This document shows positions 23,193-28,589 of a DNA stretch of 64,000 nt, one piece after another (the first letter of the stretch is position 1; each line of letters opens with the position of its first letter). Source of the stretch: an uncultured Methanosarcinaceae archaeon (lineage in GTDB: Archaea; Halobacteriota; Methanosarcinia; Methanosarcinales; Methanosarcinaceae); NCBI GenBank assembly GCA_963727895.1, contig CAVSHT010000008.1, forward strand, positions 64,001 through 128,000, given 5' to 3'. The notes beneath the pieces were generated by a model, which did not search any database, was not told the origin of the DNA, and saw nothing but the letters and a program-made list of their open reading frames with translations. Both the position numbers and the translations under genes were made by a program.

Positions 23193-23390
23193 TTAGTATC
23201 TATCTTGTCTGGGTTTTCTGTGTTTAGGAAGACATTCTCTACAGTAAACCGGTCTTTCCGGGTCAGGTTCAAAAGGTACTTCGGTTTCAACACCACAATC
23301 AGAACATTTTGTCTTGTGCATTTCCCTGGGAGCTCCAAAGCCTCCACGGTTGCTGTCTCTTCCTCTGCTTCCTCTGTCATTAAAGGCCAT
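23193..23390 (-). CDS. CxxC-x17-CxxC zinc-ribbon small protein, copy B
   Basis: CSDC...VPFEPDPERPVYCREC, SD AGGTGA. Confidence 0.9.
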   Translation of the reverse strand: MAFNDRGSRGRDSNRGGFGAPREMHKTKCSDCGVETEVPFEPDPERPVYCRECLPKHRKPRQDRY

Positions 23391-24009: not shown

Positions 24010-24363
24010 TCAATACGTAATGTAGCCTTTTCGCTCAAGCCATTCGACCTGGGGTCTTGTGTATTTCCAGGTTACTTCGGCTTTGGAGTCTTGGACTTCC
24101 CAGGGATTGGCTATGACAACATCGCCTTCGTGAATCCACATTCTCTTCTTTTTAGAGCCCGGTATCCTTCCCATGCGGACAATTCCATCCATACACTGAA
24201 GTGTTACCCTTTTCGAGCCGAGTAAACATGCAACTGTTGCCAGGACTTCATTTCTATCCTTGCGGGGGATTCGTACCCTGGATACTTCCTGGGTACTTCC
24301 TGAGTTTACCGGTTTTGATGATCCTAATCTTCTTTTTCTGATAGTGCTTCTATAATTAGCCAG
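24010..24363 (-). CDS. eif1a: Translation initiation factor aIF-1A, paralogue 1, probable CTG start (117 aa)
   Basis: RVRIP...EVLATV..LLGSKRV..QCMDG..RMGRIPG..KKRMWI.EGD.V...PWE.QD.KA...WKYTR.Q..WL..KGY. SD GAGG 7 nt upstream of CTG GCT AAT. Confidence 0.92.
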
Positions 24364-24587
24364 GTTAATTCCTCGTTGGTATACTTTGATTAATTTTTGT
24401 AAAAGTTTGCTGTTGGGCAATTTGTACAGGTTCTCATTCTCGATATCGTTTTGTTCTTATTTTTCCTTGCCGCATGAGGGTGGAATAAATAAAGAAACAA
24501 AGAGAATAAACCAAAAAACAAAAAGAAAAGATGAATCAGGAGTTAATGTAAAATAATTACAAAATTAACGCCTAATACAGATTATCT

Positions 24588-24770
24588 TTAGAACTTCCTG
24601 TGGTTAGGAAGACAATCTCTGCAGTATACTGGCCTGCCTTCTGTGGGTTTGAACGGTACTTCGGTCTCAACACCGCAGTCAGAACAGGTCACTTTTGTCA
24701 TTTCCCTTGGTCCGCTGTTACCGCGGAAACCTCCGGAATTTCCCCTGAAATTTCTGTCATTAAAAGCCAT
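24588..24770 (-). CDS. CxxC-x17-CxxC zinc-ribbon small protein, copy C
   Basis: CSDC...VPFKPTEGRPVYCRDC, SD GGAGGTGA. Confidence 0.9.
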   Translation of the reverse strand: MAFNDRNFRGNSGGFRGNSGPREMTKVTCSDCGVETEVPFKPTEGRPVYCRDCLPNHRKF

Positions 24771-24809
24771 TTTCGTTTCACCTCCGCTCTAGCGGATAGT
24801 CAATAGTTT

Positions 24810-24890
24810 AAAAACAAGATTGTATAGACCCCTTGATTAAAAACGAAAATTGGTTTTTAATAACAGATTATACGTCTCTTTATTTTCAAT
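24810..24890 (-). promoter_or_regulatory. Conserved structured 5' leader, copy 3
   Basis: Same stem-loop as copies 1 and 2, with a TATA box at ~24911-24919. Confidence 0.65.
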
Positions 24891-24936
24891 ACATACACTA
24901 TACATTCAAATTATATAAATGCATCTATACAATATA

Positions 24937-26760
24937 TAGTCACCACTTTAAATAATGCGACATTTTATGTTTAAATGTATGTTTCTCCCAAAATTCATTC
25001 ATTTCTTCCTTTAATGCTTCAATATTTTTAAATGATTTTATTGACGTTAAGTTTTCTCTTGTCACTTTCCAACAGTATTTTGTTGGGTTTCTATCTGGAG
25101 TAGCTGGAGGGAAAAATATTATTTTCAACCAATGCTTATTATTTTGATAAAATTCCTTTGCCTTTGCTGATCTATGCCATGTAGCTCTGTCCAGTAAAAG
25201 AAATATCCTTATCCCTATATCTCTTTGAAACTTGATTAATGATTTTAAGTAAGAGTCTGTATTCTGTGTAATTCCTAAATCATACCAATAAAACTCTCCA
25301 TTTTCAGTGTAGAATCCCCCAATATTGATTTTTGCTTTTGAACCACTTGTAAATTTAATAGGTTTTGAGCCCTTTATTGCCCAACATCTGGATCTATTTG
25401 AATCCACACAAAAATTACTGGAATTGGTAATTAAAAATAGATATATGTGCTTATAACATATATTTCTTCATGAACTGCCCAAAATGTAATAGTTCCAGTC
25501 ACAAAAAGAATGGTATAGTTGGTGGTCGTCAAAGGTACAAATGCCATGATTGTGGATATAACTATACAGTAGAGCTAAAATCAACTGCTTTTTCCACTTA
25601 TGTAAAAAAACAGGCTTTACAACTTTACCTTGAAGGATTGGGCTTTCGTTCAATAGGAAGAGTTTTAGGGGTGAGTCATGTTTCTGTCCAAAGATGGATC
25701 AAGAAATTTGGTCAGGAGTTAGAGGACCTAAAAAGTGAAAATGAAATATCTATTGTTGAAATGGATGAAATGCACACTTACATCGGTAACAAACAAAATA
25801 TTGCTGGATCTGGATTGCTGTTGATAGAGTTGAGAAAAAGTTCATCAGCTGCTCTTTTGGCAGCAGAGGAACGGAAACTGGAAAATTACTCTGGGAAAAA
25901 TTGAAGAAAAAAGAGATTGGAGAAGTGATGACAGATCACTGGAGAGCATATGCAGAGTTTCTTCCTGAAACGATTCATACTCAATCCAAAGCAGAAACGT
26001 ATACTGTTGAAGGATATAACAGCATATTGAGGCACTTTCTGGCAAGGTTGAGAAGAAAGACAAAGTGTTATACGAAGAGTCTTGAAATGCTAAAGTACTC
26101 GGTTATTCTATTGATGAAATACAGAAATAAAGAACTAGATATATTTAGATAACAATACCAAATTACTTTCATCAGGGGTAACGAATAAATGATTAGGGTT
26201 TAGTAATCTGTTTTTTGGACTTCTCTTATGAATTATTTTTTAAGCACCTCATTTCTTCTTTTAGATTGAGGTCGACATGTGATTTTTCTCAACCCTAAAT
26301 TTTTTAAAATTTGTCTCATTCTTGATTTGGAATAAGATACTCCAAATTTTTCCTTGACAAATTGAACTGCATCTTTTGTTTGCCAACCACGAGAATAAAC
26401 ATCATCTGTTGGTATAGGTTCTAAAAATGCCTCTCTTAACTCAGATAATTGTTCTGCAGTTAAAAAAGACTTGATTCCTCGACCAGGTTTACATTTAAGA
26501 CTAAACAAACCGTCGGTTTCAGCTCGTTTTATCCAGCGATGAACAGTTGAACGGTGAACTGAAAAATCGTCGGCAACTTTAGCGGGACTCAAACCATTTT
26601 TGATCAATAATAAGGCTTGAAGTTTAATCTACACGTTTTTGTTACAGGAATTTATGATAGCTGTAGAAATATCAGAAGTTGTAAACATTTCCAAACTCAT
26701 ATATAAAATTATATACTCATTTCAGGTATAATAATGTTGCAGTAAATACAGAGGTGACTA
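24937..26760 (-). mobile_element. IS630-family element (TA TSD), interrupted by IS1 copy 4; transposase is a pseudogene
   Basis: TIR TAGTCACC...GGTGACTA flanked by TA. HTH ORF plus DDE ORF (DES, LDRATWH, PD.NP). In-frame TAG near 26630. Confidence 0.88.
25420..26159 (+). mobile_element. IS1-family element copy 4 (740 bp), nested in IS630, 8-bp TSD AAATTACT
   Basis: TSD at 25412-25419 and 26160-26167. The uninterrupted IS630 sequence is present in the second copy near 39760. Confidence 0.93.
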
Positions 26761-27173
26761 TAGTACACAACTTCTCAAAAAAGAGAATTTATTTAAAAAT
26801 AATTTATGGAGAAGATAACAGCTTATTTCCTGATAGCTCCTGAAAACAGAATTCAGTTAACAGGTTTACTGGAAAGCAGCTCTACAAAGGAAAAGATCAC
26901 TGCTATCAAAAAAGGCCCTTCAAAATGCTTCTTATAAACCTGCAAAAATCACGGGTTTTCAAGATTTCTTTTATTAACAACCATACTCGGGGAATATTCC
27001 GGCAAGTTGCCGGCAGAAAAATATATTAACTGAATTAAACGTGAAAAAGAGGTTATTTAAATAGTATTTCTGGATTAATGTAACCTTCAAAATAGTATTT
27101 CTAGGTTAATGTGATTTTTAAAAAAGTGAAAAAGAAATAAGTGTTGATGCAAACTTAATTGCAGAAATAACAC

Positions 27174-27362
27174 TTAGTATCTTCTGTTTTCTCTGGGAGT
27201 CCTGTGGTTAGGAAGACATTCTCTGCAGTAAACCGGTCTTTCTGGGTCAGGTTTAAAAGGCACTTCGGTTTCAACACCACAATCAGAACAGGTTGTCTTA
27301 TGCATTTCTCTTGGAGCACCGAAATTAGAATTTCCTCTGAAGTTTCTGTCATTAAAAGCCAT
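27174..27362 (-). CDS. CxxC-x17-CxxC zinc-ribbon small protein, copy A'
   Basis: Near-identical to copy A. Confidence 0.9.
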   Translation of the reverse strand: MAFNDRNFRGNSNFGAPREMHKTTCSDCGVETEVPFKPDPERPVYCRECLPNHRTPRENRRY

Positions 27363-27413
27363 TTTTGTTTCACCTTTGTTTTATTTTTTGTTTTAGTTTT
27401 TATTAATTGTTTT

Positions 27414-27498
27414 AAAATAAGATTGTATAGAACTTTCTGTTTAAAATCAAAAATTGGTTTTTAACAACAGATGATTATACGGATCTTTATTTATCAAC
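27414..27498 (-). promoter_or_regulatory. Conserved structured 5' leader, copy 4
   Basis: Same fold, with UCUGUU/AACAGA pairing in the middle stem. Confidence 0.6.
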
Positions 27499-27811
27499 AC
27501 ACGTACATGAATCTTAATATATATAAATTTTTCTATAAGGGGAGAACCTTCCTCAAATGAGAACCTATCTTAGATACAGAGCTTATAGAACAAATAAAAA
27601 TGCCCCTTATATTCTGATTCCAGATGATCATTGATAAAGCAAATCTGAAGGTACTGCAAACACTCTCCCAAAATTGTATATAGAACCTTGCTCACATCAA
27701 CATTAGATATATTCCTGCAGAAAAGTAAAATGATGGGTTTCAGGCATCTTTTTCAGACACCTCTATTTCAATTATTTATTATTATATTCGGCATTTTTAT
27801 AATTTAAAAAC

Positions 27812-28162
27812 TTATTTAATATAGCCTTTCCGTTCGAGCCATTCTATCTGGGGCCTTGTGTATTTCCAGGTTATTTCGGCTTTGGAGTCCTGAATTTCCC
27901 ACGGGTTAGCAATAACAATATCGCCTTCACGAATCCACATTTTTTTATGTTTAGAGCCTGGGATTCTACCCATTCGTACAACTCCGTCCATACACTGAAG
28001 TGTTACTCTTTTCGAACCGAGTAAACACGCAACCGTTGCCAGGACTTCATTTCTGTCCTTGCGAGGGATTCTTACTCTGGATACTTCAGGGGCATCTCCT
28101 GATCTTACGGGATTTGTCGACCCTAATCTTTTTTTTCGAATAGTGCTTCTGTAATTCGCCAG
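27812..28162 (-). CDS. eif1a: Translation initiation factor aIF-1A, paralogue 2, probable CTG start (116 aa). Absent from the ORF track.
   Basis: Hand translation: (M)[123 protein letters not shown] upstream of CTG. Confidence 0.9.
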
Positions 28163-28406
28163 GTTAATTTCTCCTTGAGGATCTTGATTTAATTTGGATC
28201 TTGATTTAATTTATATCTAACTTGAAAATTGAATAGTTCGCATCGATTATTGTTCTCTATATTGTTTTGTTCTTACTTTTTCTGCTTCGATAGTGAAAAT
28301 AAGTAGAGAAACAAAGAGAACAAACCAAAAAAAACAAAAAGAAAAGATGAATCAGGGATTAATGTAAAACTTAATTACAAATTAATAGCACCTGATGCAG
28401 ATTATC

Positions 28407-28589
28407 TTAGAATTTCCTGTGGTTAGGAAGACAGTCTCTGCAGTATACTGGCCTACCTTCGGTGGGTTTGAATGGTACTTCTGTCTCAACACCGCAGTCG
28501 GAACAGGTCACTTTTGTCATTTCCCTTGGTCCGCTGTTACCGCGGAAACCTCCGGAATTTCCCCTGAAATTTCTGTCATTAAAAGCCAT
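28407..28589 (-). CDS. CxxC-x17-CxxC zinc-ribbon small protein, copy C'
   Basis: Protein identical to copy C, with synonymous differences only. Confidence 0.9.
   Translation of the reverse strand: MAFNDRNFRGNSGGFRGNSGPREMTKVTCSDCGVETEVPFKPTEGRPVYCRDCLPNHRKF

Follow-up and report, generated by a model that had tools for sequence, protein, structure and literature searches.

The stretch of DNA analysed here (the window) is 64,000 nucleotides (nt) of an uncultured Methanosarcinaceae archaeon (assembly GCA_963727895.1, contig CAVSHT010000008.1, positions 64,001 to 128,000 of the forward strand), and on its minus strand it carries two genes for aIF-1A, the archaeal initiation factor that is the homologue of eukaryotic eIF1A and of bacterial IF1. 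The host genome (3.67 Mb in 19 contigs), placed in Methanosarcina by its nearest named proteins and records, has four aIF-1A genes in total. A preliminary description of the window had noted that both copies appear to start at CTG and had proposed that the unusual codon serves autoregulation through start-codon stringency. In this work we compared the two genes with their relatives within the phylum and with other CTG-start genes of the same organism.

Read from its CTG (24361–24363), copy 1 occupies positions 24010–24363 and encodes 117 amino acids (aa) followed by a stop codon; copy 2, read from the CTG at 28160–28162, occupies 27812–28162 and encodes 116 aa and a stop codon. When we re-read both sequences on the minus strand, the arrangement was as previously given. 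In copy 1, the Shine-Dalgarno (SD) core GAGG (24371–24374) stands 7 nt (AATTAAC) ahead of the CTG, which is followed by GCT AAT TAT AGA. In copy 2, the order is AAGGAG (28171–28176, 8 nt ahead of the CTG), the spacer AAATTAAC, the CTG and then GCG AAT TAC AGA. The other two paralogues of the host genome are built in the same way, so that all four have an SD core, a spacing of 6–8 nt and an in-frame CTG. Both window products match the eIF-1a profile of Pfam (PF01176) with scores above its curated cut-off of 30.2 bits (copy 1, 64.7 bits, E = 6.1e-18; copy 2, 67.4 bits, E = 8.4e-19), with profile positions 1–64 corresponding to residues 38–100. Both are intact aIF-1A genes.

We found that neither frame has an in-frame ATG ahead of the OB fold, as the preliminary description had stated. 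In copy 2, ATG, GTG and TTG are all absent in frame from the upstream TAA to a Met codon inside the OB fold, and a canonical start upstream of the conserved domain is likewise missing in L003 and in genes of the L004 type. Because copy 2 has no canonical start further 5', the open reading frame (ORF) list contains only a 59-aa piece of it (27812–27991); the preliminary description had noted that the ORF track misses copy 2. Copy 1 has an in-frame TTG (24418–24420), 19 codons 5' of the CTG, from which the ORF track begins a product of 136 aa.

Comparative evidence on the start codon

We assembled a set of 208 distinct aIF-1A copies, drawn from genomes of the host's phylum (Halobacteriota, within which the whole survey was made) and from named Methanosarcinaceae records, and for each copy we picked as start the codon with the strongest SD pairing among the in-frame ATG, GTG, TTG, CTG, ATT, ATC and ATA codons upstream of the OB fold. 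The 11-base anti-SD motif used in this scoring is the exact 3' end of the 16S rRNA of the host genome, to which the GAGG of copy 1 is complementary. The pick was CTG in 161 copies, TTG in 18, ATT in 8, ATG in 6, GTG in 6, ATC in 4 and ATA in 3, and there was none in 2. Some of the non-CTG picks are near-ties in which CTG comes second by 0.3–1.5 kcal/mol (L023, L029, L099 and L149), and the picks for haloarchaeal rows, which have no SD, are meaningless. The preliminary description had suggested checking whether Methanosarcinaceae aIF-1A genes keep the CTG and had named a majority of ATG among orthologues as evidence against its idea; we found that CTG is kept in the family and, beyond what had been noted, across the phylum, and that ATG is the best-SD start in only 6/208 copies. 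The spacing is also uniform, as a GAGG-like core stands 7 nt from the codon in 159/177 copies.

For a codon-by-codon view, we used the 125 distinct copies that have the common xANYRS N-terminus. At the start position, the codon is CTG in 103 copies, TTG in 15, ATG in 4 and TTA in 2, with one misregistered row, which makes NTG the codon in 122/125; together with the four paralogues of the host genome, this speaks against a chance pattern. In an earlier, 120-copy version of the set, NTG was found at this position in 118/120 copies (98%), whereas at five internal columns where Leu is conserved in these genes CTG or TTG made up 168/563 codons (30%), so the start position does not evolve as a leucine codon. 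The codons that follow it behave differently. Codon 2 is Ala in 125/125 copies, with GCT, GCA, GCG and GCC all in use; at codons 3, 4 and 6 variation is nearly confined to the third base, and codon 5 alternates between AGA, AGG and CGA. Three-base periodicity starts right after the CTG and there is none upstream of –12, that is, upstream of the SD. Between the two window copies the differences from the CTG onward are mostly synonymous, as had been observed before.

These patterns bear on the possibility that translation starts at codon 8 (ATC at 24340–24342 in copy 1) and that the CTG-ANYRS stretch is an untranslated leader. NCBI starts the protein at this codon in some relatives, giving 'MRK..' proteins of 106–110 aa in Methanosarcina, Methanosalsum and Methanohalobium records, and codon 8 is ATG in 34/125 copies and ATT, ATA or ATC in 52/125. 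However, the SD is 28 nt away from codon 8, the codon is AAA, GTT or GTA in at least 31/125 copies, and other families have no equivalent codon. In addition, at codons 2–6 the amino acids are conserved while the third bases change synonymously, indicating that these codons are translated, which counts against a start downstream of them. We therefore consider a codon-8 start very unlikely; a second, shorter isoform is possible in those copies where codon 8 is ATG.

The CTG could also be an ordinary Leu codon downstream of the true start, which would then be either an ATT at the second codon 5' of it or, for copy 1 alone, the TTG called by the ORF track. The ATT is present in 89/125 copies; however, 0–2 nt separate it from the SD core, a distance too short for that SD to serve it, and in other copies and families the same position is GTT, GAT or GGT or is out of frame (L012, L035). 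No SD precedes the copy-1 TTG, and neither copy 2 nor the relatives have this codon. In 47/125 copies the six codons upstream of the CTG include an in-frame stop, frequently the TGA in a TGAGGT sequence; a stop is at codon –1 in one copy of this set, and in L086 a TAA stands directly ahead of the CTG. An upstream start would also leave unexplained the excess of NTG at the start position over that at internal Leu columns. What would suit it are the two copies from metagenome-assembled genomes (MAGs) in which TTA, which cannot start, replaces the CTG (L120 and L125), and these are also the only rows that count against CTG as the start; in genomes with more than one paralogue, either decay of a copy or an assembly error may account for them. 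Overall, we regard a start upstream of the CTG as highly improbable.

Substitutions at the start position also include ATG, which is found at the homologous codon in L041, L183 and genus g21 (ATG GCA AAT TTT). At the RNA level, contigs from 4/4 RNA-library runs (anaerobic digesters) bridge the CTG and extend more than 300 nt upstream into a zinc-finger gene, with no variant at the CTG in any of the four; as assembled contigs they carry no transcript start, strand or level, and they count as compatible evidence only. Taken together, the SD spacing, the in-frame stops, the onset of periodicity, the NTG-only variation and the swaps to ATG and TTG support the earlier call of CTG as a start codon, and they suggest that an SD-positioned CUG is, very probably, the translation start of both window genes.

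To describe how far this start extends, we followed it outward from the genus. In rows L001–L033, which represent the genus and four other families of the order, the start is CTG in 31/33 and TTG in 2/33. Of the sixteen genera of the family, all have CTG except g14 and g21, which have ATG. Two further families of the class show the pattern TGA GGT GAT AAG CTG. Outside the class, where we examined 20 representatives of 15 other families, a clear SD with CTG is found in f10, f11, f12, f16, f22, f24 and f32, while one f10 row, f17 and f20 have TTG; in f9, f13, f19, f21, f30 and f33 the start pick is ambiguous. In a further family, f18, the CTG lies behind GGAGGTG and there is an ATG five codons upstream. 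These comparisons show that the predicted CTG start of aIF-1A is ancient and has been maintained by selection: it occurs in all four paralogues of the host genome, throughout the class and in many other SD-using families of the phylum.

Other genes that appear to start at CTG, and public annotation

To place the aIF-1A codon in context, we looked at other genes of the host genome with an SD-positioned CTG. Those for MsrB (C9:357974, +), KsgA/Dim1 (C4:218481, –), a Yip1-domain protein (C12:163227, +) and a DUF790 protein (C5:419970, –; loci L204–L207) have such a CTG, and in each of them the first canonical start would cut the Pfam domain; in MsrB it lies 90 codons into a 132-codon frame. KsgA modifies the 3' end of 16S rRNA, beside the anti-SD. 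Ribosome profiling (Ribo-seq) in Methanosarcina mazei found a CTG start in 5% of new small ORFs (sORFs), according to the accessible part of that report (PMC11456600). CUG is usable as a start codon in Methanosarcina.

These genes and the M. mazei sORFs resemble aIF-1A in the organism group, in the SD-positioned CTG and in the lack of a canonical alternative. They differ in how the codon is distributed. MsrB has CTG in 4/4 Methanosarcina loci and in 0/26 loci of other genera, which have GTG, TTG or ATG; KsgA (n = 30) has CTG in 4 copies, all of them from Methanosarcina, TTG in 23 and GTG in 3. In contrast, aIF-1A retains its CTG throughout the class and in further classes of the phylum. Ordinary CTG-start genes switch codon between genera, whereas aIF-1A keeps the weakest NTG across classes and in every paralogue; since related genomes are non-independent samples, we attach no P value to this contrast.

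An energy-based scan of the genome, for codons without an upstream canonical start and with an SD of –8 kcal/mol or better, returned CTG in 23/986 cases (2.3%) as compared to 1.2–2.0% for CTT, CTC, CTA and TTA and 11.7% for ATG, so the CTG excess is small. A scan for exact GGAGG was dropped because it was noisy, with 29 CTG hits, about as many as for other Leu codons; it missed the aIF-1A genes, whose SDs are GAGGA, AGGAG or AGAGG. A repeated element with four near-identical copies (C3:45802, C4:166035, C6:23823 and C12:449074) has an internal GGAGGAGGAC-CTG and is probably a mobile-element gene.

Public records treat the start of aIF-1A inconsistently within one gene family (L126, L034, L166, L169, L037, L048, L052 and L056). 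NCBI places it at the CTG in Methanolobus psychrotolerans and Methanolobus sp. ZRKC2, at ATT at codon 8 in L126 and L034 (Methanosarcina sp. T3 and a MAG), and at ATG at codon 8 in L037, L048, L052 and L056 (Methanosalsum and Methanohalobium), while JGI aIF-1A proteins start with a literal L. The gene is thus annotated in three ways (CTG, codon-8 ATT or ATG, and upstream TTGs), and a standard ORF call misses copy 2. The bare CTG call is not new, as it is already annotated in at least two RefSeq Methanolobus records. A review of archaeal initiation gives AUG, GUG and UUG as the only start codons in its accessible text (PMC7531240). In the largely open-access literature searched, neither a CUG start nor autoregulation was described for aIF-1A; likewise absent from it are the conservation of the codon through the phylum, the difference from other genes with a CTG start and the interpretation as regulation.

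The duplicated unit and its surroundings

Each aIF-1A copy lies within a repeated minus-strand unit that consists of a 60-aa zinc-finger gene, aIF-1A and a 62–65-aa zinc-finger gene. Upstream of copy 1 is a 60-aa treble-clef zinc-finger gene at 24588–24770 (PF23477, E = 2e-19), and upstream of copy 2 is a near-identical gene at 28407–28589; the further zinc-finger genes of the units, at 23193–23390 and 27174–27362, also match PF23477 in Pfam. All of these genes are on the minus strand, and the four proteins (60–65 aa) have Gly/Arg-rich N-termini. In the alignment of the two copies with their upstream DNA, the mean column identity is 90% across 845 columns. The preliminary description had similarity between the copies begin at the SD and CTG, which we did not find: about 100 nt just upstream are diverged, and farther upstream the copies are near-identical again, through the 60-aa zinc-finger gene.

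RNA-library contigs link the 24588–24770 zinc-finger gene to the 5' part of aIF-1A copy 1 in 4/4 runs. In three runs, contigs end with adapter letters at 24870–24878, which hints at an RNA terminus some 100 nt 5' of the zinc-finger ATG. Between the units, at 24940–26607, there is insertion sequence (IS) debris consisting of a DDE_3 fragment, an IS1-type helix-turn-helix (HTH) with DDE_Tnp_IS1 pieces, and an HTH_33/HTH_32 ORF. Other Methanosarcina genomes commonly have aIF-1A copies in tandem, spaced about 1.7–2.2 kb.

The two copies form a tandem segmental duplication broken up by IS fragments, and copy 2 has no canonical start, which could be taken to mean that one or both window genes are decaying duplicates that have lost their start. 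However, both frames are intact and most differences between them are synonymous, copy 1 is covered by RNA-library contigs, and the same CTG is found in single-copy genomes of other genera (L053/L054 and L065–L067). Decay of either copy is, in our view, scarcely credible.

Possible feedback or fixed attenuation

If the CUG is the start, it would stand behind an SD that is strong and exactly spaced. Such an SD would load the 30S subunit well, and initiation would then be limited by the codon-anticodon check on the near-cognate CUG; the combination of a strong SD at fixed distance with a near-cognate codon implies that the rate limit should sit at codon-anticodon acceptance. This check would be watched by the fidelity machinery, that is, by aIF-1 with aIF-1A bound alongside on the 30S subunit. 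In the accessible parts of the sources, aIF-1 controls the codon-acceptance step in archaea and destabilizes complexes on non-AUG mRNA (PMC4705826, PMC6237735), and it rejects AUU in Sulfolobus (PMC4705826). High start-codon stringency would lower the output of aIF-1A and low stringency would raise it, giving negative feedback or cross-control; if additional aIF-1A shifted the complex toward proofreading, less use would be made of its own CUG. A start at the CUG would give the protein a basic N-terminal tail, which could itself be the element that acts on codon recognition. Circumstantial hints in this direction are the weak codon kept behind a strong, exactly spaced SD across the phylum, as against the drift of the codon in ordinary CTG-start genes, and the weak SDs of copies that switched to ATG.

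Several known systems invite the comparison. The AUU start of bacterial infC gives negative autocontrol, and its product IF3 itself rejects such codons. Like aIF-1A, infC is an initiation-factor gene with a conserved non-canonical start behind a normal ribosome-binding site; it differs in that IF3 is not the IF1 homologue, in that the codon is AUU and not CUG, and in that the system is bacterial; autocontrol of aIF-1A is a proposal by analogy. In eukaryotes, eIF1 and eIF1A jointly open the 40S subunit, and elements of eIF1A have a role in fidelity. The accessible parts of two reports describe eIF1 repressing its own poor-context start (PMC3326321) and, for eIF1 as for eIF5 with its poor-context upstream ORFs (uORFs), a coupling of the synthesis of a start-site-selection factor to the stringency set by that factor (PMC3326321, PMC6237735). 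Here the likeness lies in an initiation-factor gene with a conserved suboptimal start site; in contrast, eIF1 and eIF5 depend on AUG context in a scanning system, whereas aIF-1A would depend on a near-cognate codon behind an SD. A further difference is that aIF-1, the eIF1 homologue, has a plain ATG here, and the unusual start is on its partner factor aIF-1A. By analogy with these systems, stringency-sensing feedback may be the reason for the CTG, a proposal to which we give a little less than an even chance.

The CTG may instead be a true start that acts as a static attenuator, holding the translation of a gene with abundant mRNA at a fixed low level without any sensing of the factor. Every line of evidence for the CTG start also fits this explanation. 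It is also favored by TTG being tolerated, by the housekeeping genes for MsrB and KsgA using CTG without obvious regulatory logic, and by the weak SDs of the lineages with ATG, which look like compensation that holds output constant. On the other hand, there are many routes to low output (among them a weak SD, GTG and TTG), and a static attenuator would be expected to drift as MsrB and KsgA do, whereas aIF-1A keeps the weakest NTG together with a strong SD at 7-nt spacing across classes and in every paralogue, which would place the limit at codon recognition. We rate the static attenuator and the stringency loop about the same; each is a live possibility that falls short of even odds.

A number of observations weigh against stringency feedback acting through the CUG. 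Several concern the codon itself: CTG starts in other Methanosarcina genes mean that the codon alone is no mark of a regulatory loop; TTG stands in place of CTG in 15–18 aIF-1A copies; genera g14 and g21, with single-copy genomes, start at ATG; and the start in eight copies from four haloarchaea-like families (f15, f25, f26 and f27) is ATG or GTG and has no SD. In ATG copies the mean SD energy is –4.2 kcal/mol (n = 7) as compared to –8.4 kcal/mol (n = 165), a comparison of related rows in which those with CTG had been selected for their best SD; a weak SD in ATG copies together with a kept CTG is explained equally well by a constant requirement for low output and by feedback. RNA folding of 100 nt around each window CTG gave no structure above that of shuffled sequences (z = 0.73 and –0.05). 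Others concern the factor. Eukaryotic eIF1A has elements that act on stringency in both directions, so that an aIF-1A loop could have either sign. The known fidelity factor, aIF-1, starts at an ordinary ATG in the host genome. In the literature searched, as far as its text was accessible, we found nothing to show that the dose of aIF-1A affects archaeal stringency, and discrimination is attributed to aIF-1. The aIF-1 (SUI1) gene, at C12:356055–356270 on the minus strand (L203), has GGAGG 12 nt upstream of its ATG as compared to 7 nt at aIF-1A.

Weighing these points, we assign a probability of about 0.4 to the reading as a whole, in which aIF-1A starts at CUG and its synthesis responds to start-codon stringency. 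A broader form of it, that SD-using Halobacteriota set their aIF-1A level by a conserved CUG loop that reads stringency, as a third independent case after infC and eIF1, is more tentative still. If true, such a loop would have no earlier example in Archaea or on the IF1/eIF1A lineage. A CUG on a core initiation factor, held across the phylum, would be a working, selected start codon in archaea, and feedback control of initiation fidelity in archaea would become directly testable in the genetically tractable Methanosarcina.

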